From NCBI GenBank assembly GCA_028697145.1, contig JAQVFR010000003.1, forward strand, positions 3,988 through 67,987: a stretch of DNA of 64,000 nucleotides, given 5' to 3'. Positions within the stretch are counted from its first letter, which is position 1; each line of letters begins with the position of its first letter. The notes below the pieces were generated by a model, which ran no database searches, was not told the origin of the DNA, and saw only the letters and a list, made by a program, of their open reading frames with translations. Shown piece by piece: positions 4,620-42,516 of this stretch. Both the position numbers and the translations under genes were made by a program. Source of the stretch: Actinomycetota bacterium. Lineage in GTDB: Bacteria > Actinomycetota > Geothermincolia > Geothermincolales > RBG-13-55-18.

Positions 4620-4714
4620 GCGGATGCGCAGCACCTCCACTGATATAATCAAGACGTGTCCAGGCGCGGCGGTCACGCGGCCGCCGCGATACCATCGGGA
4701 TGAAAGGAGTTCGC

Positions 4715-5530: not shown

Positions 5531-5543
5531 CAAGAGAGGCAGC

Positions 5544-7421
5544 ATGGAATACGACATAACCGTGCAGCCCGGCGGGACGCGGTTCACCTGTCCGAGCGAC
5601 GAGGACCTCCTCACCGCACTGCACGGAGCCGGTATAAACGTGGAGAGTGTTTGCGGGGGCATGGGCACCTGCGGCAAGTGCCGTGTCCGCATCCTGGAGG
5701 GAAAGGTGACGGACCCAACCCTCGAGGAGGAGGACCATCTCTCCGAAGAGCAGCTCGACGGGGGCGAGAGGCTGGCCTGCCAGGTCTTCCCGGAGAGCGA
5801 CCTGGTCATCGAGTTGCCCGATTCCTCCCTGGCAACGGGAGAGAGGCTCCAGCTCGCTTGCGAGCTGGAGGTCGGGGGATTCGATCCGGCCGTCCGCTTC
5901 CACGACCTCGAGGTGGAGATACCCGCCTCACCGGGCGACCACGGCTCCGACCTCCTGCGCCTGCGCGATGCCCTGGGGTCATCGCACCCGGGAGTACGGC
6001 TCGAGGGCGCTGACCTGGAGGGATTGCGCACGCTCCCTACCTTGCTGCGCGAGGAAGGAGGGAACGTACGGGCGGTGACCCGCGCCGGCAAGCTGCTCGG
6101 CCTTCTTCCGAGAGCGCGGAACCCCTTGGGGCTCGCGGTGGACCTGGGGAGCACCAAGGTCGCTCTCTTCCTCTGCGACCTCGCGGAAGGGCGCGTGCTC
6201 GCGAGTCATGGTTTCCTCAACCCCCAGATTCGGCACGGGGAGGACATCGTCACCCGCATACAGTACGCGATGGACAGGGATGCGGCCCGCCTGGGTCAGT
6301 TGGTGGTGGAGGCAATAAACGACAACCTGGACGTGATCAGCGCCGACGCTGGTCTCGGCCGTGAAGACATCTTCGAGATGGTGTTGGTGGGGAACACCGC
6401 CATGCACCACCTCTTCCTCGCGCTGCCGGTAACCCAGCTCGCCATGAGCCCCTACCTCCCGGCCACCGACCTTCCCCTGGAGGTCAAGGCCAGGGACCTG
6501 GGTCTGCAACTCAATCCCGCGGCCGTGGTCTACCTGCCGCCGCCCATCGCCGGCTACGTGGGTTCCGACCACCTGGCGGCGGTGGCCGCCGCGCGCCTTT
6601 GGGAACGTCCGGAACCTTGCCTGCTCCTGGACATCGGCACCAACACCGAGGTCGCCCTGCACGCCGGGGGACGCATGCGCACGTGCTCCTGTGCCTCCGG
6701 TCCCGCCTTCGAGGGTGGGGGCCTGAGCCAGGGGATGCGTGCCGGAGACGGGGCAATCGCCAGGGTATCCGTCGATCCCGCTGCGGGCGGGCTCCGGCTC
6801 TCGGTCATCGGGGACGCAACTGCGAAGGGGATCTGCGGTTCGGGCATCCTCTCGGCGCTCGCCGCCATGGTGGAGACGGGAGCCGTTGACACATCCGGCC
6901 GCATGCGGGAGGACGGTCCCGGTGTGGAACGCCGCGGCGAGGAACTCCTTTTTTACCTCGCCCCCCCGGACTCAGGCAATCCCGAAGGGGTTGCGATCAC
7001 CCAGAACGACGTCCGCGAGATACAGAAGGCGAAGGGCGCCATAAGGGCCGGCGTGGACGCCCTCCTTGCCGAGGCGGGCATAGGCCACGGGGACCTGAAG
7101 GAGGTCGTCCTCGCCGGTGCATTCGGCACCTTTATCGACCCTGCCGACGCCCTCGCCATAGCGCTGCTTCCGCCCGTCCCCACGGGCCTGGTCAACCAGG
7201 TGGGAAACGCCGCCGGAGCCGGTGCGCGTGGCATGCTCTTCTCCGCCGGCGCGCGCGCCGAGGCAGAGGAGGTCGCCCGACGCCTGGAATACCTGGAGCT
7301 TTCCGCCTACCCCGGGCTGAGCAAGCTCTTCGCGGCCGGCATGTACCTGTCGCAGGAGACGGTGCGCGGGGCCAAGGGCCGCTTCGGCCTCCAGGCTCCT
7401 CCGGCCTCAGGACCGGACTGA
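5544..7421 (+). CDS. RACo-like reductive activator of corrinoid proteins (N-terminal [2Fe-2S] ferredoxin plus ASKHA/DUF4445 ATPase domain)
   Basis: The N-terminus carries a plant-type ferredoxin motif C-x4-C-x2-C...C (CGGMGTCGKCRV...LACQ). The C-terminal 450 aa is an ASKHA-type fold (DLGSTKVALF..., IGTNTEV). The 625-aa length matches the RACo family. Confidence 0.8.
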   Translation: MEYDITVQPGGTRFTCPSDEDLLTALHGAGINVESVCGGMGTCGKCRVRILEGKVTDPTLEEEDHLSEEQLDGGERLACQVFPESDLVIELPDSSLATGERLQLACELEVGGFDPAVRFHDLEVEIPASPGDHGSDLLRLRDALGSSHPGVRLEGADLEGLRTLPTLLREEGGNVRAVTRAGKLLGLLPRARNPLGLAVDLGSTKVALFLCDLAEGRVLASHGFLNPQIRHGEDIVTRIQYAMDRDAARLGQLVVEAINDNLDVISADAGLGREDIFEMVLVGNTAMHHLFLALPVTQLAMSPYLPATDLPLEVKARDLGLQLNPAAVVYLPPPIAGYVGSDHLAAVAAARLWERPEPCLLLDIGTNTEVALHAGGRMRTCSCASGPAFEGGGLSQGMRAGDGAIARVSVDPAAGGLRLSVIGDATAKGICGSGILSALAAMVETGAVDTSGRMREDGPGVERRGEELLFYLAPPDSGNPEGVAITQNDVREIQKAKGAIRAGVDALLAEAGIGHGDLKEVVLAGAFGTFIDPADALAIALLPPVPTGLVNQVGNAAGAGARGMLFSAGARAEAEEVARRLEYLELSAYPGLSKLFAAGMYLSQETVRGAKGRFGLQAPPASGPD

Positions 7422-10454: not shown

Positions 10455-11096
10455 TCATTCCACCGCGCCCATGAAGCGCCGCGTGAAGGAGGGGAACTCC
10501 TCTGCGAACTTCTCCGCCCATTCCTCCTTCGTCCAGTACTTGTGGCGGTCGAAGAAGGGGTTGCGGACCTGGCAGCTCACTGCCACGCCGATGCAGAAAT
10601 CTACGTCCTCGATGAACTCGCATGCCGGGGCGGCCGCCCCGATGGTCTGAAAGACACGGCAGTGCAGCCCCATGTAATGGGCCACGGCCGCAGCCGCGTT
10701 GGCGGCCATGTGCACGTCGTAGACGACGAAATGGCAGCAGGGGCCGTTGATGATCGACTCCACGTCCTCCGCCTTGTTCAGCTCCTCGCAGGTAGCGAAG
10801 CCGCAGGCGCCGCAGTCGTAGTTATAGACGGACTTGCGCCTGGCCCCCAGGAGCAGGGCGCGCGTGTCCTGCTGCGCCAGGTCCACGAAGGCGCGGCCGT
10901 CGCGATTGAAGAGGGGCGAGACCTCGGCCACTCCCTCGCAGTAGCCAGACAGGTCGTCGAACTCCTCGGGCCCGATGGCCGATATCCTGATCTTGGGATG
11001 ACCGAACTTGAGCGCGGTGTTCGCCGCCACCGCCATGAGTTCCAGCGCCCGGTCGATGCCGCTCGCGAGGAGATCGTCACCGTTGATGATAGCCAT
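10455..11096 (-). CDS. Cys-rich ferredoxin-like protein (DUF2148-like, C-x2-C-G-x3-C), paralogue 1
   Basis: 213 aa containing YDCGACGFATCEE, GPCCHFVVYD and an additional AAAPAC Cys. The ATG at 11096 follows a GGGGGGG RBS. It is tightly stacked after its paralogue (stop TAG at about 11112). Confidence 0.55.
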   Translation of the reverse strand: MAIINGDDLLASGIDRALELMAVAANTALKFGHPKIRISAIGPEEFDDLSGYCEGVAEVSPLFNRDGRAFVDLAQQDTRALLLGARRKSVYNYDCGACGFATCEELNKAEDVESIINGPCCHFVVYDVHMAANAAAAVAHYMGLHCRVFQTIGAAAPACEFIEDVDFCIGVAVSCQVRNPFFDRHKYWTKEEWAEKFAEEFPSFTRRFMGAVE

Positions 11097-11111
11097 ATCT
11101 CTCACCCCCCC

Positions 11112-11783
11112 CTAGCAGTAGATGGACCGGAAGGTCGGGAATAGCCGGTGTATGAGGCGGTTCTGCAGGGTCTCGTCGTTGTATTCCGCCCACTCTCTGG
11201 GCAGGTCTGCGAAGGGGCTCTTCTCCGTCACCGCGGCGAGGAAGCCCAGGGCGATGTCGCACTTGTAGGGCAGCAGCCCCATCCTCAGGGCGGCGGCCCC
11301 CACCGACATCTTGATGGCATGGTCGATACCCAGCTGGCGCGCCAGGGTCACGGCTCCGTTCAGGGCATAGGCCATGTTCATGGAGCGCAGCAGGCAGAAC
11401 GGGCCGCGGAAAGCGACCGACGGCGCGTCCGGCACCCTCTCGGCGTCACGCCACATGTCACAGAGCAGGTGCCCGCAGAGGTTGCAGTTGGAGTCCATGG
11501 GATCGTGGCTCGAGCGGCGGTCGGCCATGATCATGACCACGTCCGAGTCGCGCACCTGCACCGCGTCGGAGCGGAAAAATTCCCAGCGCGGGTTGTCGGC
11601 GGCCATCCTGTCGATGGCGATAGCCAAATCCTCTATCTCGTCCCTGGAATCCAGGACGTGGATGCTTATCTCGTCCACCCCGCCCACGCGGGGCGAGGTC
11701 GTCGCCGAGGCCAGGAGGAGCTTGCAGGCAAGCCTGACGCTTTCCTCCCTCCTTTCCTCGTACTCCCTCATCTTTCTTTCCAT
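11112..11783 (-). CDS. Cys-rich ferredoxin-like protein (DUF2148-like), paralogue 2
   Basis: Carries SNCNLCGHLLCDMW, the same C-x2-C-G-x3-C spacing as paralogue 1. The ATG at 11783 follows a GGGAGGGGG RBS. Confidence 0.5.
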   Translation of the reverse strand: MERKMREYEERREESVRLACKLLLASATTSPRVGGVDEISIHVLDSRDEIEDLAIAIDRMAADNPRWEFFRSDAVQVRDSDVVMIMADRRSSHDPMDSNCNLCGHLLCDMWRDAERVPDAPSVAFRGPFCLLRSMNMAYALNGAVTLARQLGIDHAIKMSVGAAALRMGLLPYKCDIALGFLAAVTEKSPFADLPREWAEYNDETLQNRLIHRLFPTFRSIYC

Positions 11784-11867
11784 GATGGGACCCCCTCCCT
11801 GCAAAGGAAACTCTTACGAAAACCTCCGGCATGCGCCTTTCCGCATCGCCGTCTCCCGGCAATAAGG

Positions 11868-12269
11868 CTACATGGGAAGGCCGTATTCCTCGCAGATAGC
11901 TGGGTAGGCCTCGTATGCCGGCTTGAGCAAGGGGAGCATGCCGAGGATCTTGGCCATGGGACCCTTGGCCTTGACCTTCCTCTTGGCCAGGGCCACGGGC
12001 AGCTTCAGGTTCTGCAGCCAGAAATTATGGCAGTCGTCGCCGGCCAGCCACATGATCACGTCGCCCTCGGCGTCGGTGGCTCCCACGGCCAGCCCCGGCT
12101 TGTCCGTGCCGTGCAGCAGCCAGATCTCTCCATCGGGGTCGTTGATGACGAACTGTACATTGATGTTCTCGTCGTTGAACTTCTGGCTGACGCTTTCGTT
12201 TTCGAGCAGTTTCGTGAAGAGCTTGCCAAGGACCTCGTACATGAACTCAGTGTCCTTGAATACCGGCAT
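11868..12269 (-). CDS. SCP2 sterol-carrier/lipid-transfer domain protein
   Basis: 133 aa beginning MPVFKDTEFMYEVLGKLF...WLLHGTDKPG...GDDCHNFWLQNLKLPVALAKRKVKAKGPMAKILGM, which fits the SCP2 fold consensus. The RBS AAAGGGG sits 9 nt upstream of the ATG at 12269. The ORF-track N-terminal extension is R/P-rich and judged non-coding. Confidence 0.7.
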   Translation of the reverse strand: MPVFKDTEFMYEVLGKLFTKLLENESVSQKFNDENINVQFVINDPDGEIWLLHGTDKPGLAVGATDAEGDVIMWLAGDDCHNFWLQNLKLPVALAKRKVKAKGPMAKILGMLPLLKPAYEAYPAICEEYGLPM

Positions 12270-12355: not shown

Positions 12356-12537
12356 CTAATGCGGTGCCCCTCGTCAAGTGGAATAGTCTTGTATTTTCCG
12401 CGAACGGGGGGGCGGCGGACAAACGCCCGGGGAGCGTAGCGGGCGCGCGGCATCCGCGCAGGTTGTTCGCGCTCCCGGGGCGTGGTAGATTCTGTTGTAG
12501 CGACATGATCGCTTTGAATCGGGCAACGGGGGACAAC

Positions 12538-13146
12538 ATGGCGAAGAAGCGGACTGCGCCCAGGACGGAGAAAGGCATAAACACGCGGCAGGCGATTTTC
12601 GATACCGCCATCGCCCTGTTCGCGAAGCGGGGCTATGACAAGGTCACCATCGACGACATCTGCGACAAGGTCGGGGTCACCAAGGGCGCCTTCTACAACT
12701 ATTTCGAGTCCAAGGACCAGATCATCCTGGAGGAGTTCATGCGCATGGACGATCACTACGTCAAGGTCGCGCATGACATAGCGGACTTAAAGAGCAGCGC
12801 GGAGAAACTGCGCGTGTTCAACCGCGAAGCGGTCAAGCTCATGGCCGACCTCGGAGTCACCATGATGAAGGTGGTCTATCACTCCCAGATCGCTCCGAAC
12901 ATGCGCAGACCCTATCTCATGGACGGCAGGCGCTCCCTCTATAAGATCACGAACGAGCTTATAAAGGAGGGCCAGGAGAAGGGAGAGATCCGCGACGACA
13001 TCGCCAGCGAGGAGATGGCGGTCATGCTCATCAACTGCTTCCGCGGCCAGATCTATCACTGGTGCCTGGCAAACGGCTCCTTCGACCTGGTGGGCACCTG
13101 CGACACGCTTTTCGACCTCATAATGGATCGCCTCACGCCGCGCTAG
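12538..13146 (+). CDS. TetR/AcrR-family transcriptional regulator
   Basis: N-terminal helix-turn-helix AIFDTAIALFAKRGYDKVTIDDICDKVGVTKGAFYNYF. The first ATG after the divergent intergenic region is at 12538. Confidence 0.85.
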   Translation: MAKKRTAPRTEKGINTRQAIFDTAIALFAKRGYDKVTIDDICDKVGVTKGAFYNYFESKDQIILEEFMRMDDHYVKVAHDIADLKSSAEKLRVFNREAVKLMADLGVTMMKVVYHSQIAPNMRRPYLMDGRRSLYKITNELIKEGQEKGEIRDDIASEEMAVMLINCFRGQIYHWCLANGSFDLVGTCDTLFDLIMDRLTPR

Positions 13147-13308
13147 ACGCGTCGTCCGGCCTCGAGGCGGCTTATGCGGTGACCCCGCGATCGTCTCTGC
13201 AGCCCGCTTCGGCGCTCGATGCTCCATGCGGTTAAAGTGGCGGCTCTACCGTGTCGATTAATACCAGAGCAAGCGATAACTTATATTCTGGACAGGGGAG
13301 TCTGCAAC

Positions 13309-14358
13309 ATGAAGCGCTGTTCCGCATGCGGTGTTCCCAGAAAGATAACGTCCACCCACAGATGGCTGGATAACGGCACCATGGTGGAGACGAACAATCC
13401 CGATCACCGTATGATCTTCATAGAAAGCGACAACATAGGCGGCGTCTTCACGCGCATCGAGGAAATCCTCGGCCTCCCCATCGAGCACCTCGTCATCGAG
13501 AGCCAGCGCAGGATGACCTACGATTACGTCCGCAGCCTCATGCCGTCCATGGTGCTGAAGTTATTCCGCATGACCTCCATCAGGCCTCTGGCGAAAAGCG
13601 TGACCGAGCTGGGGAGACTCGTAGGCCTGGGAGACGTGGAACTTCTCTCTATGCGCATCAAGGGAGACGAGGGGGACTACGTGAAGCTGGGAGGGAGAAA
13701 CCTCTTCTACATACCTGCCTATTGCGGCATGGTGGTCGGCTCCATGGAGGCGCTGTCCGGACAGGAATGCAGCATCAGCTACGAGGAGACCTCGCCGGGT
13801 TACTACGAGGTGACCACGTCTGTCACGACCCACCCCGTGGAGCTGAAGGAGAGGTTCAAGCCACGGGAGTATTCGCGCAAAGAAGGGGACCTGCGCTTGC
13901 CGCGGTGCTCCCGCTGTGGGGGGCCGTCGGCGCTCGCGGGCTACGATTTCCTCTACGACGAGGGCATCATCCTGCACCGGGCGAACGCACGGCGCATGCT
14001 CTTCGACGGCCCCGCGGAGTTCGAGGCCATCTTCTCCGAGCTGGAGAAGGAGCTGGGCGAGGATATTCCGCAGGTGATAATCGAAGCTCAGAAGCTCTTC
14101 GTCAAGAGCGGATTCTACGACCTCGGCGAGATCATGGACACCGATGCCTTCAGGGAACACCTGGCGCTGCGCGGTCTTGGCAACCTGAGGGACATGGAGT
14201 ACGGAGAGGACCACCTGCGCCTGCGCATCGAGAACCCGTGCCTTCACCTGCTCCTCGCCGGCCTGGCCCAGGGAGTATTCGAGCTCGCGAGCGACCGCGA
14301 GGCCCGGGTTGCCTGGGAGCTGGCGGGAGACGGCGACCTGACCGTAGAGGCATCCTAG
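13309..14358 (+). CDS. Hypothetical protein with an internally duplicated CxxCG-headed domain (paralogue of 37380..38465)
   Basis: Begins MKRCSACGVPRK...; a second repeat starts at LPRCSRCGGP... Each repeat has a conserved ...ARRMLF.G...FEAI...LGE...VIIEAQ core. The RBS AGGGGAG sits 9 nt upstream. No confident family recall. Confidence 0.6.
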   Translation: MKRCSACGVPRKITSTHRWLDNGTMVETNNPDHRMIFIESDNIGGVFTRIEEILGLPIEHLVIESQRRMTYDYVRSLMPSMVLKLFRMTSIRPLAKSVTELGRLVGLGDVELLSMRIKGDEGDYVKLGGRNLFYIPAYCGMVVGSMEALSGQECSISYEETSPGYYEVTTSVTTHPVELKERFKPREYSRKEGDLRLPRCSRCGGPSALAGYDFLYDEGIILHRANARRMLFDGPAEFEAIFSELEKELGEDIPQVIIEAQKLFVKSGFYDLGEIMDTDAFREHLALRGLGNLRDMEYGEDHLRLRIENPCLHLLLAGLAQGVFELASDREARVAWELAGDGDLTVEAS

Positions 14359-15597: not shown

Positions 15598-15790
15598 CGT
15601 TTCCCCCTTCATCTCATACCTTTTACCATACGTACGCGTGCCAGGCCTGCACTCGCTGCACTCCGTTCAGGTGACTGGCACCGCCGCCTTCGGCGCTGTC
15701 GCTTCCGCGATGCATCCTGTCGAAACCTTTTTCATGCCTCGCGCCCCCCAGCCCGATAACTATGGGGTCGGTCGCCGCGAGTCCGCGAGC

Positions 15791-16077
15791 GGGACCGTTA
15801 CCCCAAGGTTCGGGCCAACCGAAGCCTTCCGTCTGCTGGACCGCCGCCAGCACGGCGGGCAAGGTGCTCGGAGGAGCTTGCGACGACGACCATCCTTGCC
15901 GCCGGGCTCCTGCGGAAGCGGGACCGTTGCCCCAAGGCTCGGGCCAACCGAAGCCTTCCGTCTGCTGGACCGCCGCCAGCACGGCGGGCAAGGTGCTCGG
16001 AGGAGCTTGCGACGACGACCATCCTTGCCGCCGGGCTCCTGCGGAAGCGGGACCGTTGCCCCAAGGCTCGGGCCAAA
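15791..16077. repeat. 129-bp tandem direct repeat, about 2.2 copies, intergenic
   Basis: The unit gggaccgtt(g/a)ccccaagg(c/t)tcgggccaaccgaagccttccgtctgctggaccgccgccagcacggcgggcaaggtgctcggaggagcttgcgacgacgaccatccttgccgccgggctcctgcggaagc starts at about 15791, 15920 and 16049. Copies are near-identical. All six frames give R/P/G-rich low-complexity translations. Confidence 0.85.
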
Positions 16078-16078
16078 A

Positions 16079-17338
16079 TCAACCCACGCGCTCCAATATA
16101 TGGATGCACATGGCCGCTTCGCCGGTGCCAATGAAGCCACCGCCGTTCTCTGACATGGCTATCCTCGCCCCCTCCACCTGGCGCTTGCCGGCCTCGCCCC
16201 GCAACTGCGTCACCAGCTCGACCAGTTGGGCGATACCAGAGGCCCCGATGGGATGTCCACGGCATTCCAGCCCTCCCGAGGTGTTGACGGGGAGCTTGCC
16301 CCCCAGCTTGGTGGCACCGGACTCCGCGAAGGGGCCGCCCTCTCCCTCTCCGCAGAAACCCAGTTCCTCGCACTGCAACAGCTCGCCGAAGGCGGTGGCG
16401 TCGTGCACCTCGGCCATGTCGATGTCCTCGGGGCCCACGCCGGCCACCTCGTATGCCTTCCTGCTCAGGCGTTCCCCGATGAGGTCCATGTCGCCTCCCT
16501 CGGGGATGGCGCCTCCGGTGAGCACCGATGCAAGGATCTTCACCGGACGCGCGCCGGTGAAACGCTTCAAGGCCTTCCCCGAGCAGAGTATCGCCGCCGT
16601 GGCCCCGTCCCCCATGGGCGCGCACATGGCGCGGGTGAGGGGGTAAGCCACCGGCCGGTCATTGAGGACCTCCTCGAGGGTCATATCCATCTGGTACTGG
16701 GCCAGGGGGTTCAGGGATGAATGGTAATGGTTCTTGGCGGCGATTATCGCCAGTTGCCGCTGCGTGGTGCCGTATTTCTCCATGTGCATCCGCGCCGCCG
16801 CGGCATAGAGGTCCATGAAGGGAGAGCGGGCGCCCTCGCCCCCTCCCTTCTTGCCCCCTCCCGTCGCCTCGGCCTCGGCCGCCTTCTTCTTCTCGTCCTC
16901 CATGAAAGCGGCAAGCACGACACGGATGAACTCCACGTCCGCGTTGGACATGAACATCTCGAACATGGCCTGCTTGTTGTCCGGGTTGAACATCTTCTCC
17001 ACCCCGATGGCCAGCGCCACGTCGTAAGCGCCCGCCCTGATGCCGAGGTAGGCGCCGTTCACGGCGCTGGTCGCCCCGGCGCAGGCGTTCTCTACGTTCA
17101 TGGTCGGGATGCCCTCGATGCCAAGCGGGACCAGCGCCACCTGGCCGCGTATGGAATGCTGGCCGGTGACTATCCCCCAGAAGGAATTGGAGAACCACGC
17201 CGCCTCAATATCCTTCTTCTGGACCGGGCAGTCCGCCAGCAGGTTGTCGATGACCTCCGCGGTCATCTGCTTGATGCTCTTCTCCGGGTACTTGCCGAAG
17301 CGGAACATCCCCACGCCGATGATATAGACGTCCTCCAT
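16079..17338 (-). CDS. SCP-x/nonspecific lipid-transfer-protein-type thiolase (thiolase-like superfamily)
   Basis: Begins MEDVYIIGVGMFRFGKY...; has NVENACAGATSA with an active-site Cys, and a C-terminal GGLECRGHPIGASG. The RBS AGGAGG sits 6 nt upstream of the ATG at 17338. Confidence 0.8.
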   Translation of the reverse strand: MEDVYIIGVGMFRFGKYPEKSIKQMTAEVIDNLLADCPVQKKDIEAAWFSNSFWGIVTGQHSIRGQVALVPLGIEGIPTMNVENACAGATSAVNGAYLGIRAGAYDVALAIGVEKMFNPDNKQAMFEMFMSNADVEFIRVVLAAFMEDEKKKAAEAEATGGGKKGGGEGARSPFMDLYAAAARMHMEKYGTTQRQLAIIAAKNHYHSSLNPLAQYQMDMTLEEVLNDRPVAYPLTRAMCAPMGDGATAAILCSGKALKRFTGARPVKILASVLTGGAIPEGGDMDLIGERLSRKAYEVAGVGPEDIDMAEVHDATAFGELLQCEELGFCGEGEGGPFAESGATKLGGKLPVNTSGGLECRGHPIGASGIAQLVELVTQLRGEAGKRQVEGARIAMSENGGGFIGTGEAAMCIHILERVG

Positions 17339-25733: not shown

Positions 25734-26086
25734 GTCGCAACCTCCCTCTCCGTCACCCGATCCGCTGCCAGTAACAAGTCTAGATTGAGTATTACCCCCA
25801 AGTTTGACGGCGTAAACTCGCGCGCGCCCGGAAAATGACGGGGTGTGGGGGCCCGTCCCCTCATAAGGGTAGAATGGGCAACGAGCAGCGCTTGCGATGT
25901 GCAAAGGGGCTGGAATGTATGGACATCACAGTTAGACAAGAGGGAAGCGCGCATATCGCGTTGATAAGAAGCCGAAAGTATTGATCGCCGATGTGGACGA
26001 CGCATTGGACCCCGCGAACGGCTAAGAAGACCACGGGGCTAGACGGATCGCGGGTGCCTCATCCCGGGAAATACGGACCGGTGCGC

Positions 26087-30653: not shown

Positions 30654-30687
30654 AAAAAACGGCCTCTTTGTTTCGAAAAGAGGCCGG
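30654..30687 (-). terminator. Rho-independent terminator (minus strand)
   Basis: 9-bp stem cggcctctt/aagaggccg followed on the minus strand by TTTTTT. Confidence 0.6.
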
Positions 30688-30927
30688 TTTCACTATTAGC
30701 TCAGAACGTTATTAGTGACCATCTCATAAAACGTTCGTCATCGCTTCCTCTTAGACTGATCTAAACCTAGTGCTTTCATCTATCTAGTAAGTCCATCCTT
30801 AAGATAAAGCACGGACTCGTGCCCTTCTATGATTCAGATCAGGCAACTTTGATCATGAGAACGGCAGTTGGACAGCGGCAGTCTCGAGGCGTATCCGGGG
30901 CGGCGCGAACCTTCTGCTCCGTAATGC

Positions 30928-34382: not shown

Positions 34383-35675
34383 TCAGCTTATCTCGCGGAT
34401 GCGCTCGTACAGCTCGTTGCGGTGAAACTGGTCGAAGTCGTAATAGCCGCGCACGACGTCGAGCCTTGAGAGTTGCGCTCCACCCTCCCATAGCTGAAGC
34501 GTCTTCGCGTCCCTCCAGTATTTCTCCACGTAGTAATCGGTCACGTAACCATACGAGCCCATGAGCTCCATGGCGCGGTTGGTGACGTTGATCGCCGCGT
34601 CGCAGCAAAAGACCTTGGCGGCCGATGCCCTGGAGAGCATGTGCACGGATGCGCCGTCACCATACACCTCGGGGCGGTCATATAAATAAGCGGCGTTGAC
34701 GTAATTGTCCCTTCCCGCCTGTATGCCCATGGCGATATCGGCAAGCATGGTGGCGCAGACGGTATGCTGCCGGATGGGCTTTCCCGCCGCTATCCTGTCG
34801 GTGGTAAAGGCAAGGACCTCGTCCAGGGTCCCCTGGGCCATACCGATGGCCAGCCCCGCGGAGACGATGCGCGCGAAGGCCTGGTTGTCCCACAGCAACT
34901 CCGCGTCCCAGCCCGGCCCGGCGGCCCGCCATCCCTCCGGCACGCGCACTCCCTTGAGCTCGAAACCGCCCTGTCTGCTGCCCCTGAGCCCTTCCTTGTC
35001 CTCGAACCCCAGGAACGTAAACCCTTGCGTCGGGACCTCCACGTAGACCAGGGCGATCCCTTCGTCGCCCAGGCTCTGATCCGTGCTCGCGACCACGCAA
35101 TATGCGCCCGCAAGGCCCGCGTTGACCGACCATACCTTGGTGCCGTCCATTACCCACTGCCCGTCGCGCAAGGCGGCGGCACAGGTTATCCCGCTACCCA
35201 TGAGGTCGGCGTTCTCGATATCGCTGCCCCCTTGTGGCTCGGTGGCTGCGAAGCACCCCAGGCATAGTTCATCCTCCTGTACGAAGCGGGGTGCAAAATG
35301 CTCCAGCACCTCACGGTTGTCAGTCTTTATCGCCGGTCGCATGGCCAGAATGCCGCCCATCAGGGAGGTAAAGAGGGCGGCATCTCCCCTTCCCATCTCC
35401 TCCGCCAGCAAGGCCGTGGTCAAGGCCGAGGACAGGCCCATGCCGCCATATTCCTCCGGCAGGAACCCTCCCTGCAGCCCCAGGGGCAACATCTTCTTCA
35501 GCGTTTCCTCCACCAGCCCGTAATCCGAGCGTGTGCTCTCGTCGAGCTCCCTACGCACCGGCATGATCTGCTCGTCCACGAAATCCCGCGTCGAGCTCAG
35601 AAGGAGCTTGTCCGAGGGACTTAGAAGTTCCTGGACGAACCTGTTCTCCTTGCGTTCAATGGATACCTGTGCCAT
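34383..35675 (-). CDS. Acyl-CoA dehydrogenase family protein (tandem paralogue A)
   Basis: ACAD-like throughout (CFAATEPQGGSD, YGYVTDYYVEKYWRDAK). About 45% identical by eye to 35749..37044. Confidence 0.75.
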   Translation of the reverse strand: MAQVSIERKENRFVQELLSPSDKLLLSSTRDFVDEQIMPVRRELDESTRSDYGLVEETLKKMLPLGLQGGFLPEEYGGMGLSSALTTALLAEEMGRGDAALFTSLMGGILAMRPAIKTDNREVLEHFAPRFVQEDELCLGCFAATEPQGGSDIENADLMGSGITCAAALRDGQWVMDGTKVWSVNAGLAGAYCVVASTDQSLGDEGIALVYVEVPTQGFTFLGFEDKEGLRGSRQGGFELKGVRVPEGWRAAGPGWDAELLWDNQAFARIVSAGLAIGMAQGTLDEVLAFTTDRIAAGKPIRQHTVCATMLADIAMGIQAGRDNYVNAAYLYDRPEVYGDGASVHMLSRASAAKVFCCDAAINVTNRAMELMGSYGYVTDYYVEKYWRDAKTLQLWEGGAQLSRLDVVRGYYDFDQFHRNELYERIREIS

Positions 35676-35748
35676 GTCCTCTATCCTCCTTGCCGGCTCA
35701 GCCGGCGGACGACCTTTTCTGCTTCACGCGCTCCGCCTCCCTCTGTCT

Positions 35749-37044
35749 TCATTTCCTTCGCATCTCCTGCATCTTTTCATAGAGATCATTCTCGTAGAAC
35801 TGGTTGTAGTCATAGTAGCCGCGGGTGACGTCCATCTTCCCCAGCTGTACTCCCCCCTCCCACAGCTGGACGATCTTGTTGTCGCGCCAGTACTTCTCTA
35901 CGTTATAGTCGGTGGCGTAACCGTAATTGCCCATGAGCTCCATGGCCTGGTTGGTAGCCTTCACCGCCATATCGCAACAATAGACCTTGGCGACCGTGGA
36001 CCTCGACAGCATGTACTTCGAATGCCTCGGCCCGTAGGTCTCCGGGTGGTCGTACATGTAGGCGGCGTTGACATATGAGTCCCGTCCCACCTGGATGCCT
36101 ATGGCGATGTCCGCGAGGATGTTCGCGGCCACGGTGTGCTGGCGTATGGGCTTTCCCGCAACCTTGCGGTCGCGCGTGAAGGCCAGTGCCTCGTCGAAGG
36201 CGCCCTGGGCGATGCCCGCCGCCCACGCCGCACTAAAGAGGCGGGCAAAGACCAGGTTGTCGTGCAGCAGCTCCGCGTCTTTTCCGGGTCCCGCGGCGCG
36301 GTACTCCAGGGGTACGCGCACGTCCTCGAAATAGAAGTCACCCTCGTGGCTGCCGCGGAAACCGGCCTTGTCCTCGAACCTGCCAAAGCTGTATCCCTCT
36401 ATAGGGACAGGCACGTAGATGAGGGCGATACCGTCGTCGCCCAGGGACGGGTCTGTGTTGCACACCACGCAATATACATCGGACTCCCCCGAGTTCGTCG
36501 GCCATACCTTGGCGCCGTTGATCACCCATTCGTCACCGTCCAGCACGGCGCGGGTGTGTATGCCCTTTCCCTTCATGTCAAGGTTCTCTATGTTGCAGCC
36601 GCCCGAGGGCTCGGTCATGGCGAAGCAGGCGACGTAAGGCTCACTTCCCAGGAAGCGAGGCGCAAAATCTTCCAGCAGGGTCTTGTTCTCTGCGAACACC
36701 GCCGGGCGGAAAGCCCAGGTGCCGCCTCCGATGGGCGCAATACAGGCGGGCTCGCTCCTGCCGAACTCGTCGAGGATGACGCAGTAGGTTAGCGCCGAGG
36801 TGAGGTTCCAGCCCCCGTATTCCGGCGGAAGGAACGCGCTCTGAAAGCCAAGGTCGACAAGCTTTCTCTGCACCTCCTTCACCAGTTTCCAATCGCCGCG
36901 TGTGCTGGCCTCCATCTCCTTTCGTATGGGCATGATCTCGCGTTCGACGAAGTCCCGGATCAGGTTCACCAGGAACCTGTCCCCGGGGCTTACCAGCTCG
37001 TGCATGAACCTGTTCTCCCTGTTCTCGATGGAAACCTCTTCCAT
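35749..37044 (-). CDS. Acyl-CoA dehydrogenase family protein (tandem paralogue B)
   Basis: Begins MEEVSIENRENRF...; has CFAMTEPSGGCN and YGYATDYNVEKYWRDNK. The RBS AAGGGGGAAGGGAG precedes the ATG at 37044. The ORF-track upstream extension is not used. Confidence 0.75.
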   Translation of the reverse strand: MEEVSIENRENRFMHELVSPGDRFLVNLIRDFVEREIMPIRKEMEASTRGDWKLVKEVQRKLVDLGFQSAFLPPEYGGWNLTSALTYCVILDEFGRSEPACIAPIGGGTWAFRPAVFAENKTLLEDFAPRFLGSEPYVACFAMTEPSGGCNIENLDMKGKGIHTRAVLDGDEWVINGAKVWPTNSGESDVYCVVCNTDPSLGDDGIALIYVPVPIEGYSFGRFEDKAGFRGSHEGDFYFEDVRVPLEYRAAGPGKDAELLHDNLVFARLFSAAWAAGIAQGAFDEALAFTRDRKVAGKPIRQHTVAANILADIAIGIQVGRDSYVNAAYMYDHPETYGPRHSKYMLSRSTVAKVYCCDMAVKATNQAMELMGNYGYATDYNVEKYWRDNKIVQLWEGGVQLGKMDVTRGYYDYNQFYENDLYEKMQEMRRK

Positions 37045-37149
37045 ACTCCCTTCCCCCTTTTCGCATGAGCGATAAACAGAACCCCTCCTGTTCCGTGAGA
37101 AGCCTTTTTCGACCGGACCGCCGATGAGACCTGACATGCCGCGAGGCCG

Positions 37150-37356
37150 TTATTCACGCCCCTCGCGCCTGTCGCGTTCGCGTTTGTATGGTACCCCTTT
37201 GCCCTTCCTGCCCTGCTTGACCTTGGTAGGAGGAGGCATCGCTTTGCGGATGCGTTTGAAAGCCTCTAGCCAGGAATCCCCTCTCTTCTCTACCCCCATG
37301 GCGACCTCCAGCCGCTGTCTCTCGATTGTCCGGTTTGCGCCCTGTTGATTCGTCAT
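37150..37356 (-). CDS. Small basic hypothetical protein (68 aa)
   Basis: MTNQQGANRTIERQRLEVAMGVEKRGDSWLEAFKRIRKAMPPPTKVKQGRKGKGVPYKRERDRREGRE. The RBS GGGAGGA is adjacent to the ATG. It sits between the CxxCG paralogue and the ACAD pair. Confidence 0.4.
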   Translation of the reverse strand: MTNQQGANRTIERQRLEVAMGVEKRGDSWLEAFKRIRKAMPPPTKVKQGRKGKGVPYKRERDRREGRE

Positions 37357-37379: not shown

Positions 37380-38465
37380 CTATTCCCCGCCCGGGGCGAG
37401 GATGTAGGAAACCGACGAAGGACCGGTCAGCGACCAGTCCACCCTTGCCCTCTTCCCCTCCATCGCCTCGTAGAAGGCGGCCAGCCTTCCGGCCATGAAG
37501 TACTCGCTGTAAGGGTTCTCCACCCACACCCTGAGGGCGCCGCCCGCGGTGTATTCCACGTCGGTCGCCAGGCCCTGCCCATAGAGCGGAAGCAGGGAGA
37601 GCATCTCCTGCAGCAGGTCGCTCCTGGCCTCCTCCGAAGTGCTGGTCAGACCAAGGTCGTCCAGCATCTTCAGGGTATAGTCCCTCTCCGCGTCTACGAT
37701 GATGGGGATGACCTCGTCTCCGAGTTCCCGTATGAGCTCCCTCGCCACCAGGGAGAGCAGGAATCCCTCCCAGTTGAGCATGCGTATCCCCCTGCGCTTG
37801 TCGATGATAAGGCCTTCGTCCTCCCGCCATTCCATGTGCCTGATGTCCAGGGGAACGCCGCAGCGGGGGCAGCGGTGGTGGCGGTAGTCGCCGTCTTTCA
37901 CCGGTGGGAACTCGACCTCCAAGCGCTCCGACAACTCCGGCTTATACTCTGTCACCTCGACCCTGAGGAGGTACTCCCCGTCTTCCTTCTTCCAGAACGA
38001 GCGCAACGGCTTTCCCTCCAGGGCCTCGAAAGCGCCGACCACGACCGCCGCCATGAGGTCCAGATCCCAGGGATTGCGCATGCGTGCCACCCCGTATTTC
38101 CCGCTGCGGTATTCGACGGTGCGAGAGCTCGCCGTGCCCGTCATCCACGCCATGTTATTAAAGAAGCGCACGGCGCCGTACTTGAAGGGAGGTATGCGCA
38201 GGGTAAGGCGTATGGTCTGCGACTGCAGGAGTGCCGCGATGACGATGCGCACCGAATTACGCTCCGCCTCGTAGAATATGCGGTTAACGGGAAAGCCCAA
38301 CCCCTCAGAGATACGGCGCCTCAGCTCGGGCAGGAGATCGGCCTCGTAGAATACCTGCCTTATGCGTGAATCCCCCCTGCTGACGATGGTGCCGTTGGAC
38401 TCCCAACGGTTCATGCGACTCACCATCTTGGGAACACCGCATACGCTGCAGCGGCTGTAATGCAT
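37380..38465 (-). CDS. Hypothetical protein with an internally duplicated CxxCG-headed domain (paralogue of 13309..14358)
   Basis: Begins MHYSRCSVCGVPK...; second repeat starts HHRCPRCGVPLD... It shares the ...RRGIRMLNWEG...L..EL....IP.IVDAE... core with the first paralogue. The RBS AGGGGGT precedes the ATG at 38465. Confidence 0.6.
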   Translation of the reverse strand: MHYSRCSVCGVPKMVSRMNRWESNGTIVSRGDSRIRQVFYEADLLPELRRRISEGLGFPVNRIFYEAERNSVRIVIAALLQSQTIRLTLRIPPFKYGAVRFFNNMAWMTGTASSRTVEYRSGKYGVARMRNPWDLDLMAAVVVGAFEALEGKPLRSFWKKEDGEYLLRVEVTEYKPELSERLEVEFPPVKDGDYRHHRCPRCGVPLDIRHMEWREDEGLIIDKRRGIRMLNWEGFLLSLVARELIRELGDEVIPIIVDAERDYTLKMLDDLGLTSTSEEARSDLLQEMLSLLPLYGQGLATDVEYTAGGALRVWVENPYSEYFMAGRLAAFYEAMEGKRARVDWSLTGPSSVSYILAPGGE

Positions 38466-38725: not shown

Positions 38726-40306
38726 TTATGTCTTGGATTTGCCCTCAAACTCCCGCCGCAACTCCCGCTTGAGAACCTTACCGCTAGCCGTCATTGGCAG
38801 CGCCGGCCGGACATAAACCTTCTTGGGGACTTTGTACCCGGCCATGTTCTTTTTGCAGAAAGCGATGATCTCTTCCGGGGTTACCTCCACATCCGGTTTG
38901 GGGACGACGATCGCCGTCACAAGCTCCATCCAGTAAGGATCGGGAACCCCGATGACCGCCGCCATGGCCAGCTTCGGGTGCTGGAGTAGCGTTCCTTCTA
39001 CTTCCTGGGAGGAGACGTTTTCTCCGCCCGTCTTTATCATGTCCTTTTTCCGGTCGACAAAATAGAACCAGCCGTCTTCGTCCATATAGCCTAGATCCCC
39101 GGTATGCAGCCAGCCGTTGGCTAATGCTGCCGCTGTAAGATCTTGTTTCTTCCAGTAACCCTTCATCACTGCTGCAGACCGGATAACCAATTCTCCCACC
39201 TGTCCAACCGGTACCTCACGATCATTGACGTCGAAAACCCTTACCGCCACGCCCGTATCGGGGATACCGATAGCGTTCCGTTTCTGATCGAATGCTTCCG
39301 GGCTGGAAGTCGTTCCCACAGGGCTGCTCTCCGTCTGTCCCCAGTAATTCCGCCACTGGGTGTCCGGATTGATCCCCTTCCAGCGCTCTATGACCACATT
39401 CGGGATGACGGCACCAAAGGAAACGAATTTCTTCAATGAAGACAGATCGTACTCGTCGAACCCCGGGATAGAGGGAATGGCGGCATAGAGGGTGGGCGGA
39501 TACACCCAGTAGGTTATCTTTTCATCCTGCGTCACCTTCAGGGTTTGTAATGGATCCGGGGCATAGGTGATTACCGCCCGTGCTCCGGTGGCCAGCACTC
39601 CCAAGAGGACGGTGTTGCCAGCGACATGAAACATCGGGATGTCGATGATAAAGGCGTCATCGCGTGTGAAGTTGGCATCCGGAATGAGGTGAAGGAGCGA
39701 CATGTAGTAATTGAGATGAGTGGTCATGACGCCCTTGGGAAAACTCTCCGTTCCGGTAGTATAGATAAGGGTCGCCACGTCGTCGGAATCGATGATGACC
39801 TCCGGCTCCGTTGCCGGATACGCGCCGTTGAAAAAATCGCCGACATCTATCCAGCCATCCGGCTTTGGCTTCTTGCCGAAATTGAGCCAGCCGAAATGCT
39901 CGATGCCCTTTAGCCCATCTTTCACCGAGAGCACGTTTTCCGTGAGCATATCCTCCACGAAAAAGGCCTTGGGCTCGGCATCGCCGATGATATAACTTAT
40001 TTCCTCGCCCTTGAGCATGAAATTCAGCGGAACCGTGATCGCCCCGAGCTTGGCCAAGCCGAAACAGCAATAGAGATAATCCATACAGTTGTGGGTCATA
40101 AAGGCAACCCGGTCTCCACGCTTGATCCCCAGTTCGGCAAAGGCGTTGGCCGCCATGCAGCTCTTCTCGTTAAGCACCCTGAAGCTGATGCGCTCTTCTC
40201 CATAGATGAATACGGTTCTTTCCCGGAAACGCGCCGCCGACCGGCTGACCAGATCGCCTATGACCGCTCGTCTCAAAAGGTTCTCGTGCAACTCATCCAA
40301 AACCAT
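38726..40306 (-). CDS. AMP-dependent synthetase/ligase (acyl-CoA synthetase), second copy
   Basis: YTTGTESFPKGVMTTH, TGDLGYMDEDGWFYFVDRKKDMIKTGGENV and a C-terminal lid domain. The RBS GGAGGGAGG precedes the ATG at 40306. Confidence 0.85.
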   Translation of the reverse strand: MVLDELHENLLRRAVIGDLVSRSAARFRERTVFIYGEERISFRVLNEKSCMAANAFAELGIKRGDRVAFMTHNCMDYLYCCFGLAKLGAITVPLNFMLKGEEISYIIGDAEPKAFFVEDMLTENVLSVKDGLKGIEHFGWLNFGKKPKPDGWIDVGDFFNGAYPATEPEVIIDSDDVATLIYTTGTESFPKGVMTTHLNYYMSLLHLIPDANFTRDDAFIIDIPMFHVAGNTVLLGVLATGARAVITYAPDPLQTLKVTQDEKITYWVYPPTLYAAIPSIPGFDEYDLSSLKKFVSFGAVIPNVVIERWKGINPDTQWRNYWGQTESSPVGTTSSPEAFDQKRNAIGIPDTGVAVRVFDVNDREVPVGQVGELVIRSAAVMKGYWKKQDLTAAALANGWLHTGDLGYMDEDGWFYFVDRKKDMIKTGGENVSSQEVEGTLLQHPKLAMAAVIGVPDPYWMELVTAIVVPKPDVEVTPEEIIAFCKKNMAGYKVPKKVYVRPALPMTASGKVLKRELRREFEGKSKT

Positions 40307-40434
40307 GGCTTCCTCCCTCCAAATATGATTTGTTCCAGACCCTCTTGAAGCCATATGTGCTCCCCCCTCCATATTTCCTCTCTTTCCCAAAGCGGCCTGA
40401 CCTCGGCTTCCCCCCCTGGCCGCCGAAGTGGCGA

Positions 40435-41883
40435 CTAGCCAGTGATTCCGCATAGCCGTCTGGCCGATTCGATGGCCTCCTGCCGGTACGGGGCTTGCTT
40501 AGAGAACTCAAAAAGCTCCATCTTGCAGGCCTGCCCGGATCCCCCGCCGTGCGTAGCGGAGTGCAGTATGGAGCCAAGTCCCCATGAGATATTCTCGATG
40601 AGTCTGACCATGCGAATCCTGTGTTCCGCGGGGACATCGTCCACGCCCTTGAGGAAACGCTCCAGGAAAGGCGCGATCTCGGGGTTGTTCATCTCCTTCT
40701 CGCTCGGGCAGCAGGAAAGGATACCCCCGGTTATGTCCTCGGCCAGCCTGATGAGATCGAAGACGGCGCGCGATGCGTAGTACTTGGCATTATTGGCGAG
40801 CACGGGATCGGATACGTAGCCGCCTCCGGGAAGTTCGTAGCCGCGCATGGCGGCAGCGATCCCGCAGGAATACACGGTTTCAGTGATAGCGATCATGTCC
40901 GCCAGCTTGTCCCGGACGTGGGCGGAATCCTCCAGGCCATTGTAGCGCGCCACGAGTTGAGTCGCGGCCACCAGCACGTCGGCCCATCCCGCCTTGCAGC
41001 CACCCGTGGTGGGACGGTGTGATGAGCCGAAGAGGCCGACCAGTTCCTCGAGGTAATCCACCTCCCCGCAGAGGAATACCCGCTCCCAGGGAACGAAAAC
41101 GTCGTCGAACACAACAACGCATTCGTGCACCCCGTAACGGCTGTTGCCCAGGTCTATATCCGCCCCTTTTTGCCGGCGCTCGTCCTGTGAATGGCGCACC
41201 GATATATGAATCAGCCCCGGCGCGGTGGTGGGTACCGCACAGGCCACAGCGTAATCCTCGGAGCCCCGACGGTGGGTCGTGCAGGGCAACACCAGCTTCT
41301 CGTGCGAGATGGCGGCTCCGGTCTGGTGTAGCTTCGCTCCCCTAAGCACTATACCATCGCCGTTCTTTTTCACCACGCGCAAATACATGTCCGGGTCGGA
41401 TTGATCGCATGCCTTGATCTTACGGCCTCCCTTGGGGTCGGTGATGGCGGGGCAGGCCAAAAGGTCATTCTCCTGCATGTACCTTATCCAGTCGGACACA
41501 TTGCGATGATAGGAGGTGCCATTGTCCGCATCCACCTTCGCGGCGATATACAGCAGGGGCGCGTAGGCGTTCTGGATACAGCGGAAGGAGCACATACCAA
41601 GTTGGCGGTTGCAGTAGCGGGTCACGTTTACTTTGGCCACCAGCTCATCTGCGTTCTGTGGGACGTGTTGGAATATAGGCACCGGCTCCCCGCTAAGATG
41701 GGAGGTTGTGATGACCTTGTCCCTGTATGCGGGTTCGCATGCCAGATCGTAGGTGAAGGCTACCGCCTCGGCGGCGGCCTGCACCGACGGGTGGTCCATG
41801 GCGCTATCGACCTTCCCGCCATCGATGTAGAGCGGCAGTTTCATGTCTCTGACGCTCTGCAGGTACTCTTTCCCCGTTCTCAT
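40435..41883 (-). CDS. 4-hydroxybutyryl-CoA dehydratase/vinylacetyl-CoA delta-isomerase family protein (AbfD-like, FAD/[4Fe-4S])
   Basis: Recalled alignment to Clostridium AbfD covers TDPKGGRKIKACDQSDPDMYLRVVKKNGDGIVLRGAKLHQTG, GADIDLGN...VVFDDVFVPWERVFLCGE and HRPTTGGCKAGWADV. The Cys of CSFRC and the H-x6-C motif are conserved, consistent with the cluster ligands. The ATG at 41883 has GAAGGGAG 8 nt upstream; an alternative start is at 41889. Confidence 0.8.
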   Translation of the reverse strand: MRTGKEYLQSVRDMKLPLYIDGGKVDSAMDHPSVQAAAEAVAFTYDLACEPAYRDKVITTSHLSGEPVPIFQHVPQNADELVAKVNVTRYCNRQLGMCSFRCIQNAYAPLLYIAAKVDADNGTSYHRNVSDWIRYMQENDLLACPAITDPKGGRKIKACDQSDPDMYLRVVKKNGDGIVLRGAKLHQTGAAISHEKLVLPCTTHRRGSEDYAVACAVPTTAPGLIHISVRHSQDERRQKGADIDLGNSRYGVHECVVVFDDVFVPWERVFLCGEVDYLEELVGLFGSSHRPTTGGCKAGWADVLVAATQLVARYNGLEDSAHVRDKLADMIAITETVYSCGIAAAMRGYELPGGGYVSDPVLANNAKYYASRAVFDLIRLAEDITGGILSCCPSEKEMNNPEIAPFLERFLKGVDDVPAEHRIRMVRLIENISWGLGSILHSATHGGGSGQACKMELFEFSKQAPYRQEAIESARRLCGITG

Positions 41884-41931
41884 CGTCATTTGCTCCCTTC
41901 GAATCGATGTTCCTTACCGCTAGCCCCGTCC

Positions 41932-42516
41932 TCACTGCCCCCCCGGCCGTTTTGCGCAAGCCCTGGTAATGAACTCCAGAAAGAGACTCGCGACCTCGTC
42001 TGTTGTCAACGGCCCACTCTTTCTGTACCAAACGGGAAGCCAGTTGCACATGCTCGAGATAATGCGCGCGGTCATGGGCACGTCTATCTCCTCGAATGTG
42101 CCTTCCTCGACCGCCTGCTCGAGGGCAGCCCGCAGTATCCCCTCGTATTCCCGGCTCAATGAGCGGATGCGCGCCCTCTGCCGCGCCGGAAGCTCCTTCT
42201 CCTCCGCGAAAAAGACGCTGGCGAAGTCGCCGTACTCCGAGAACAGGGAGAGGTGCATGCAAAAGAGCTCTGCCAACTTCTCCCTTGCCGTCATCGTGGA
42301 GTTGTCGACCTCGCGTGCCTGGTTGAGTAGCTTGCTGACCGCCTGGTCGCAGATGCTGTAGAGGAGATCATTCTTCGCCTCTATGTAATGGTAGAGCGTG
42401 GGCTTGGAGATTCCCAGTTCGGAGGCGATATCCTCCAGTGTAGTGGAACTGTACCCCTTCCTGCTGAAGAGCGCTGCGGACGTATTTAGGATCTCCCACC
42501 AGCTGGTCTTGGCCAC
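41932..42516 (-). CDS. TetR/AcrR-family transcriptional regulator
   Basis: Helix-turn-helix ALFSRKGYSSTTLEDIASELGISKPTLYHYIEAK. GTG start follows the RBS AAAGGA. Confidence 0.85.
   Translation of the reverse strand: MAKTSWWEILNTSAALFSRKGYSSTTLEDIASELGISKPTLYHYIEAKNDLLYSICDQAVSKLLNQAREVDNSTMTAREKLAELFCMHLSLFSEYGDFASVFFAEEKELPARQRARIRSLSREYEGILRAALEQAVEEGTFEEIDVPMTARIISSMCNWLPVWYRKSGPLTTDEVASLFLEFITRACAKRPGGQ

Follow-up and report, generated by a model that had tools for sequence, protein, structure and literature searches.

The window, which is the whole stretch of 64,000 nucleotides that was analysed, has a GC content of about 62% and a strong GC3 bias, and the gene calls were therefore clear. 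It was found to contain exactly two copies of one protein family. Gene A is located at nucleotides 13309..14358 on the + strand and encodes a 349 amino acid protein with two V4R-like repeats. Gene B is located at nucleotides 37380..38465 on the - strand and encodes a paralogue of 361 amino acids with the same two-repeat architecture. The start codon of A is the ATG at nucleotide 13309, with the sequence GGGGAG 8 nucleotides 5' of it. The longest open reading frame at gene A begins at nucleotide 13219, and the public gene calls give the identical product of 349 amino acids (P0001, a public hypothetical protein); the 361 amino acid product of B was also identical to that of the public gene calls. 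Both reading frames were present where the original prediction had located them, and its claim of paralogy was borne out, as A and B aligned end to end with 29% identity (BLASTP, E 1e-42), including the match between MKRCSACGVP and YSRCSVCGVP that had been quoted in its favour.

Each protein had been described as two repeats, each headed by a CxxCG knuckle, and our study agreed on both points. Comparison of the N-half and C-half profiles of a 36-member alignment gave an hhalign probability of 99.4-99.6% and E-values of 1e-22 to 1e-23, and the single-sequence BLAST comparison of the halves was not significant (E 2.3). Repeat 1 of A (13309..13833, + strand, approximately residues 1-175) was found to contain the knuckle, an N-terminal arm and an alpha/beta core, on the evidence of hhalign (E about 1e-22) and the secondary structure of the model. 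Repeat 2 (13894..14355, + strand, approximately residues 196-349) is the slightly better conserved half, the mean frequency of the majority residue being 0.62 in repeat 2 and 0.55 in repeat 1. The CxxCG-x-P motif was present at the start of both halves in A and in B. In A, knuckle 1 contained C4-S-A-C7-G-V-P10 (13318..13338, + strand), conserved in at least 90% of the family members, and knuckle 2 contained C200-S-R-C203-G-G-P206 (13906..13926, + strand), which was invariant in the 36-member alignment. In B, the first cysteine pair was C6..C9 (38439..38450, - strand) and the second was C199..C202 (37860..37871, - strand), and no cysteine was found outside the two knuckles. The knuckles lie about 195 residues apart, in different repeats. 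Across the family, the only cysteine columns conserved at 90% or more were those of the two knuckle pairs, i.e., four cysteines. Both pairs were present in 208 of the 222 full-length family members, and the remaining 14 were mostly N-terminally truncated gene calls or CxC variants.

A gene encoding a TetR-family regulator (12538..13146, + strand; Pfam TetR_N, E 1e-16; gene call of 202 amino acids) was found directly upstream of A, at a distance of 162 nucleotides. Alignment of the intergenic regions has shown the presence of a non-coding motif, TTAAAGTG..GTCGA..TACCAG (13232..13267, + strand), 42-77 nucleotides upstream of A. The motif was conserved in five orthologous loci and was not palindromic; it is a candidate promoter or regulator site, overlapped by a promoter-like pair of hexamers at 13258-13287. 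A search for inverted repeats in the spacer between tetR and A gave none. A had been said to follow tetR and its operator directly; this was correct for the tetR gene, but in place of a palindromic operator only the conserved motif was present. A forms a tetR-A unit of its own on the strand opposite to the acyl-CoA dehydrogenase (ACAD) and thiolase genes. The island in which A lies is preserved around its orthologues in four other genomes, and the order of tetR followed by the family gene was kept in all four orthologous islands found (L004, L028, L029 and L030). One side of the A-type island contained an ACAD gene, a ligase gene, two DUF2148 genes and an SCP2-like gene, followed in the middle by tetR and one or two family copies, and on the other side by genes for a Fer4-nitroreductase, an SCP-x-type thiolase, an ACAD pair and an Enolase_C protein. 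The open reading frame that lies between the genes of the nitroreductase and the thiolase was considered as a DUF35 partner of the thiolase and was rejected, as it had no Pfam match. Pterin_bind and RACo proteins were also found to be encoded in the window, 6-8 kb from A.

Gene B is followed, 23 nucleotides downstream, by a small basic open reading frame (37150..37356, - strand; 68 amino acids, pI 11.2), which in the public gene calls is shortened to 49 amino acids by the choice of an internal start. Two tandem genes with Pfam ACAD domains come next (35749..37137 and 34383..35675, together spanning 34383..37137, - strand), and the order of B, small reading frame, ACAD and ACAD was kept across strains (L007-L009). 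The small basic reading frame was tried as a partner of the family and rejected, since none of the other family members was found to have it as a neighbour. Upstream of B and on the same strand were found genes for an acyl-CoA ligase (38726..40453, - strand), an HpaB-like protein (40435..41889, - strand) and a TetR protein (41932..42516, - strand); this cassette (38726..42516, - strand) was missing in one strain variant. B had been described as the head of an operon. The 68 amino acid reading frame and the two ACAD genes do follow it, but the TetR, HpaB-like and ligase genes precede it on the same strand, and its status as operon head is therefore uncertain. The closest relative of B that was found (63% identity) lies after two amine-oxidase-like flavoenzymes, with an aldehyde:ferredoxin oxidoreductase gene facing it and no ACAD neighbour.

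In the sequence-family searches, A and B matched no model of Pfam or NCBIfam. The scan of all 36 aligned members with Pfam at E <= 10 gave only spurious zinc-ribbon matches, and the sequence-profile search of the PDB gave no match below E 0.25. Neither V4R (PF02830) nor XylR_N (PF06505) was matched in Pfam by A, B or the 36 aligned members, even at E <= 10. Against a 61-sequence profile of XylR_N and V4R, hhalign gave marginal values that were not significant (C half, E 0.005 with a probability of 7%; N half, E 0.036), and a 3-sequence XylR_N and V4R set was likewise marginal; the DmpR sequence used for hhalign was checked against 6iy8. The only stretch that hhalign aligned in both repeats contained the arm G-x-I..R-M followed by E-L..L-G of helix 1, in the correct topological position. 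The relation of the family to DmpR-type domains is one of predicted fold, and at the level of sequence its homology to V4R/XylR_N is marginal and not established. The A-R-R-M..F..L-G..I-I-E-A core pointed out in the original prediction falls at the stretch which hhalign aligns to the DmpR-type arm and first helix. The rubredoxin and zinc-ribbon models gave only scattered sub-threshold matches (zf-Mss51, Zn_ribbon_TFIIB and RUBY_RBDX). Among the DUF35 and zf-ChsH2 models, zf-ChsH2 reached E 0.6, far below the cut-off, and the OB-fold domain was not matched. The YxSxR motif and the invariant histidine of H-NOX were sought in the family and were absent.

The AlphaFold2 models on the family alignments were confident, with a pLDDT of 91.8 and a pTM of 0.90 for A, and a pLDDT of 90.8 and a pTM of 0.88 for B. 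The order of secondary structure was identical in the two models and was repeated twice in each. In Foldseek, the best structural matches of A and B were sensor domains of the DmpR/PoxR/MopR type, and the PoxR, MopR and DmpR sensor domains aligned over 173-186 columns. Each repeat is predicted to be a DmpR/PoxR-type sensory domain of the V4R / Bet3 / H-NOX fold class, with the N-terminal arm and the alpha/beta core of the V4R/XylR_N DmpR-type domain present in the predicted fold. The original prediction could not place the two proteins in a known family and had proposed a Foldseek comparison of AlphaFold models among its checks. With Pfam and NCBIfam empty, that statement stands for the sequence, but it does not stand for the fold, to which Foldseek assigned a class in each repeat. 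It was right that the proteins resemble neither DUF35 nor a classical rubredoxin, as no model matched significantly and the predicted fold is V4R-like and not OB.

The best structural match was the sensory (A) domain of DmpR, PoxR, MopR and XylR (XylR_N PF06505 and V4R PF02830; 6iy8, 5fru and 5kbe). The match covers the whole repeat of A and B, about 160-185 residues, including the N-terminal arm, and a similar arm and helix-1 motif (G-x-I..R-M..E-L..L-G) is at the same place as in DmpR, without a significant sequence match. DmpR forms a tight dimer through exchanged arms (PMC7264223), whereas in A and B two copies are fused in one chain. Unlike DmpR and the other sigma54 activators, A and B are stand-alone proteins with no AAA+ or DNA-binding (HTH) output domain. 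The internal zinc site of DmpR (C151, E172, C177 and C185; PMC7264223) is absent from the family, whereas the CxxCG knuckle that starts each arm of A and B is lacking in DmpR. The host lineage of A and B, Actinomycetota, is a further difference from the DmpR-type activators.

A and B also resemble the V4R proteins BchJ, MJ1460 (PDB 2oso) and COG1719 ('predicted hydrocarbon-binding protein') in being stand-alone proteins with no catalytic motif and in being encoded beside enzymes that act on hydrophobic substrates. However, BchJ, MJ1460 and COG1719 are single domains of about 150-200 amino acids, have neither N-terminal cysteine knuckles nor a tandem duplication, and are recognised by Pfam V4R, which does not recognise the present family. 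H-NOX, the Bet3-family subunits of TRAPP, YslB and BcsD belong to the same broad fold class with identities of only 6-16%. Stand-alone H-NOX members can act on partner proteins, but A and B contain neither the heme-ligating histidine nor the YxSxR motif. The fold class also includes scaffolds, i.e., BcsD and the TRAPP subunits, so the likeness of fold does not prove ligand binding; unlike these scaffold members, A and B gave no evidence of scaffold assemblies. With the Cys4 sites of rubredoxin and zinc ribbons, A and B share two C-x-x-C-G knuckles, proline at the typical positions and exactly four conserved cysteines, but their knuckles are far apart in separate repeats and the metal site is putative. 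The fold class has been described before, but no description was found in the libraries searched of the family, of its two fused modules with cysteine knuckles, or of its confinement to Geothermincolia and its expansion there.

The covariation of residues was studied by mean-field DCA on 212 family sequences (Meff 174). Many of the top pairs agreed with the beta-hairpins of the model, and the covariation signal is therefore informative. The pair at rank 1 joined T14, which is in the repeat-1 arm on the helix that directly follows knuckle 1, to G205 within knuckle 2. The pair at rank 10 was F37-M230, on equivalent strands of the two repeats, and several pairs connected residues 216-231 of the repeat-2 arm with residues 124-145 of the repeat-1 core. 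The block between the two knuckles was not enriched overall, with 4 pairs in the top 1% where 2.9 were expected. The covariation supports in part an exchange of arms between the repeats, and would put knuckle 2 near the repeat-1 arm. As the universally conserved cysteines number exactly four, two on each arm, we lean towards a single Cys4 metal site that the two repeats share.

The profile search of 1.84 billion representative proteins gave 558 family clusters (50% identity), nearly all of about 350 amino acids and with the same two-repeat architecture. No further recognised domain was found in any family member. The only long member, P0153 (549 amino acids), had a low-complexity tail without a domain, which is probably an artefact of the gene call. 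The median pI of the family is 5.5, and this acidity speaks against DNA binding. All of the 35 loci recovered from a species-level genome collection were in Geothermincolia-type actinobacterial MAGs, i.e., Candidatus Solincola species, Anoxymicrobiaceae and Geothermincolales, and the named homologue matches were likewise from Actinomycetota MAGs. Geothermincolia-type hosts form an uncultured, deep-branching actinobacterial class of anaerobic digesters, sediments and hot springs. Single MAGs were found to contain at least 5-7 family copies.

The gene contexts of the family were varied, and most of the neighbours were enzymes whose substrates are hydrophobic or activated with CoA; the A-type islands contain, among others of this kind, the SCP2-like genes, the SCP-x-type thiolase, the ACADs and long-chain-type ligases. 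The scan of the genome collection was built on an alignment of 10 more closely related sequences, so the loci are biased toward one subfamily. In this subfamily-biased census, a tandem second family copy was present at 11 of the 37 independent loci, and the largest sampled subfamily followed a geranylgeranyl-reductase-family gene (passing TIGR02032) and a B12-binding radical SAM gene, at 14 loci. Another member adjoined genes for a URO-D-type methyltransferase and a B12-binding corrinoid protein. Further members were found beside a glycyl-radical enzyme, Amidohydro_2 with a PaaK-like ligase, DUF362, TetR with SDR, LivG/F-type ATPases (ABC transporter) or a cyclase, and a TetR gene was also nearby in locus L037. 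An ACAD gene was present within 6 kb in only 3 of the 37 independent loci of the same biased census, all three of them orthologues of A's island. The original prediction of a conserved co-location with ACAD operons did not survive this count, and the closest relative of B likewise contradicts it. The link with ACAD genes is not a trait of the family and is conserved only for the orthologues of A.

On the basis of the models, A and B are probably non-catalytic binders of hydrophobic small molecules and not partners specific to ACADs. Previous studies reported that the N-terminal arms of DmpR intertwine into an interlocked dimer and that the phenol is enclosed by a hydrophobic cavity (PMC7264223). 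For V4R domains, the binding of hydrophobic ligands and an action either in cis or in trans have been proposed (PMC2253512), and BchJ, the protein that gave V4R its name, is now seen as a possible pathway chaperone and not as a reductase (PMC7242693). The reading that we favour, and to which we give an even chance, is that of a metal-clamped pseudo-dimer which serves the adjacent enzymes by holding hydrophobic substrates or intermediates. The two DmpR/PoxR-type modules of one chain would pack together and swap their N-terminal arms, as the interlocked homodimer of DmpR does, to form a covalent pseudo-dimer. The CxxCG-x-P knuckles at the arm tips would each give two cysteines to one tetrahedral metal site, most likely of structural zinc, which would clamp the arms, and the cores would enclose pockets for hydrophobic small molecules. 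Having no catalytic or output domain, the protein would be a ligand-holding accessory to the enzymes encoded beside it and would solubilise, protect or present a hydrophobic substrate or intermediate. B may hold the acyl-CoA substrates on which the neighbouring ligase and ACADs act, and A may hold the substrate of the surrounding lipid-type acyl-CoA island; different paralogues would serve different pathways. This reading of A and B as ligand-holding accessories draws on the ligand-binding fold, the lack of a catalytic or output domain, the acidic pI and the many paralogues beside different enzyme sets, together with the precedent of V4R for hydrophobic ligands (PMC2253512) and the chaperone view of BchJ (PMC7242693).

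A fold and a testable function are hereby assigned to a family of about 560 clusters, with several copies per genome, which had no annotation. If ligand binding is true, the V4R/DmpR-type domain also exists in a fused, pseudo-dimeric and output-less form, with a metal clamp unseen in the characterised members. The paralogues may flag gene clusters for hydrophobic substrates in organisms whose metabolism is known from MAGs alone. DmpR-type domains are already used as biosensors, and a compact single-chain version could therefore become a new sensing scaffold.

A possible but less probable explanation is that the family members are sensors in trans, which would bind an effector as the A domain of DmpR or a stand-alone H-NOX does and would pass the signal on through protein-protein contact. 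A would act on the TetR repressor encoded beside it, as an anti-repressor or co-repressor, and other paralogues would act on the neighbouring enzymes, which would be controlled allosterically. The best structural matches are themselves sensor domains; within the superfamily H-NOX proteins are stand-alone sensors, and signalling in cis or in trans has been proposed for V4R domains (PMC2253512). The order of tetR followed by the family gene was found in all five A-type loci, with a further TetR gene upstream of B and another nearby in L037. The occurrence of one paralogue for each catabolic cluster is what specific regulators would be expected to show, and the conserved upstream motif suggests that A is itself regulated. 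The pairing of A with TetR, on the strand opposite to the enzymes, counts against an accessory role for A, and a regulatory role fits at least equally well. However, TetR proteins have a ligand-binding domain of their own, no member of the family is fused to an output domain, and most members adjoin enzyme genes and not those of a regulator, kinase or cyclase. The tandem duplicates at 11 of the 37 loci would also be unusual for dedicated regulators.

A more speculative reading, which we regard as improbable, takes the family members as stand-alone, single-chain mimics of the DmpR sensory dimer, in which an inter-repeat Cys4 metal centre would tie the two arms together, would respond to redox or metal and would gate the capture and release of the ligand, each paralogue controlling a different anaerobic pathway or supplying it with a hydrophobic substrate. 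The pathways in question would be radical SAM/isoprenoid, corrinoid methyltransfer, glycyl-radical and acyl-CoA oxidation. If true, Geothermincolia would possess a lineage-specific alternative to one-component regulators and lipid-carrier proteins.

It is very unlikely that the pockets hold a corrinoid, another tetrapyrrole or a flavin for delivery to neighbouring cofactor-dependent enzymes. The fold class does include the heme-binding H-NOX, and BchJ has been linked to tetrapyrrole intermediates (PMC7242693); the commonest neighbour was a B12-binding radical SAM enzyme (14 of 37 loci), though its predominance is inflated by the search patterns. The member beside the methyltransferase and corrinoid-protein genes and the Pterin_bind and RACo proteins encoded 6-8 kb from A would fit such a cofactor chaperone. 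Flavoenzymes neighbour many copies, but they are frequent in catabolic clusters of any kind. Directly beside A and B there are no B12 enzymes, and the family has no invariant histidine and no H-NOX YxSxR motif.

Marginally less probable still is a redox protein, whose four cysteines would bind iron as in rubredoxin and would pass electrons to neighbouring redox enzymes or sense redox. Both knuckles are of the rubredoxin type (C-P/x-x-C-G-x-P), Fe-S and flavin proteins occur among the neighbours (the Fer4-nitroreductase, DUF2148, the ACADs and radical enzymes), and the V4R domain of MsvR senses redox through cysteines (PMC3729527). Against this, two large domains in about 350 amino acids go far beyond the needs of an electron carrier, the Pfam rubredoxin and zinc-ribbon matches were all insignificant, the neighbours are too varied for a single dedicated redox partner, and zinc is the usual metal in such structural knuckles.

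The original prediction had suggested that the two proteins serve the dehydrogenases or the thiolase as an accessory subunit, a chaperone or a factor that delivers substrate, a model taken here as one of dedication to the ACADs or to the SCP-x-type thiolase. The idea of a non-catalytic accessory is compatible with the ligand-binding fold, and it is the specificity for ACADs that fails: although B lies on the strand of its two ACAD genes, 23 nucleotides 5' of the small reading frame, in an order kept across strains, and the islands around the orthologues of A always contain ACAD, thiolase and ligase genes, such dedication has equally little probability given the 3 of 37 loci, the ACAD-free closest relative of B, the transcription of A with or after tetR on the strand opposite to the ACADs and thiolase, and a fold that is not the DUF35 fold which partners such thiolases, with no DUF35 HMM match. 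The association with ACADs is a trait of two particular paralogues and not of the whole family.

A third subfamily was found within the unannotated family of two-repeat, two-Cys-pair proteins to which both window paralogues, A (13309..14358, plus strand) and B (37380..38465, minus strand), belong. Its members were more distant (20–29% identity, HMM E-values of 1e-16 to 1e-30) and contained the two repeats and two Cys pairs common to the rest of the family. One member was present at nucleotides 15629–16768 (minus strand) of another genome locus, L006, and equivalent copies were found in the loci L016, L018, L021, L023, L025, and L035. The third-subfamily copy recurred on the strand opposite to that of the radical-SAM-linked copy, at a distance of 5–8 kb from it.

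The region upstream of the family gene A contained a non-palindromic motif, TTAAAGTG..GTCGA..TACCAG (13232–13267, plus strand). It was conserved at five orthologous loci in the spacer preceding the family gene, and outside the motif these spacers had diverged. An inverted repeat of 14 nucleotides (93% complementary, with a 33-nucleotide spacer) was present at 12423–12483, within the divergent region that precedes tetR, and may serve as a regulator site or form a hairpin.

The A-type islands, the acyl-CoA gene islands around A and its orthologues, contained further conserved genes. A tandem pair of DUF2148 proteins, which have a ferredoxin-like domain, was encoded at 10455–11804 (minus strand), flanked by an acyl-CoA ligase gene and an SCP2-like gene, and this pair was conserved in every A-type island. 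The adjoining SCP2-like ORF (11868–12269, minus strand; 133 aa) had a weak match to the sterol-carrier-like SCP2 domain, with a Pfam E-value of 6e-4, just under the cut-off, and was conserved at about 92–94% identity across all A-type islands. A second weak SCP2-like gene was found in L045, close to the closest relative of B. Two large, unusual proteins were also encoded inside the acyl-CoA island of the window, both on the minus strand. The 830-aa protein (20342–22834) contained an enolase C-terminal TIM barrel as its only recognised part, and in the 935-aa protein (23097–25904) an amine-oxidase-like flavoprotein was fused to FNR-like FAD/NAD domains and to a 2Fe-2S ferredoxin domain. Genes adjoining the island (4700–7421, plus strand) encoded a pterin-binding methyltransferase subunit and, for the reductive activation of corrinoid proteins, a RACo-type activator.

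Upstream of B, a cassette of TetR, HpaB-like, and acyl-CoA ligase genes (38726–42516, minus strand) was present in the window and in the locus L008. The Soeholt contig (L007) lacked the cassette and was otherwise identical; the cassette is a strain-level presence/absence variation.

Two cyclic-di-GMP-II riboswitch aptamers were found at 30673–30757 (minus strand) and 31486–31569 (plus strand), with scores of 61 bits and, for the GAG variant, 48 bits, both above the gathering score. They lay upstream of divergent genes encoding large surface proteins with SdrD_B/SpaA repeats (28509–30608, minus strand, and 31848–34289, plus strand), and this arrangement suggests that adhesins in this actinobacterium are under c-di-GMP control.
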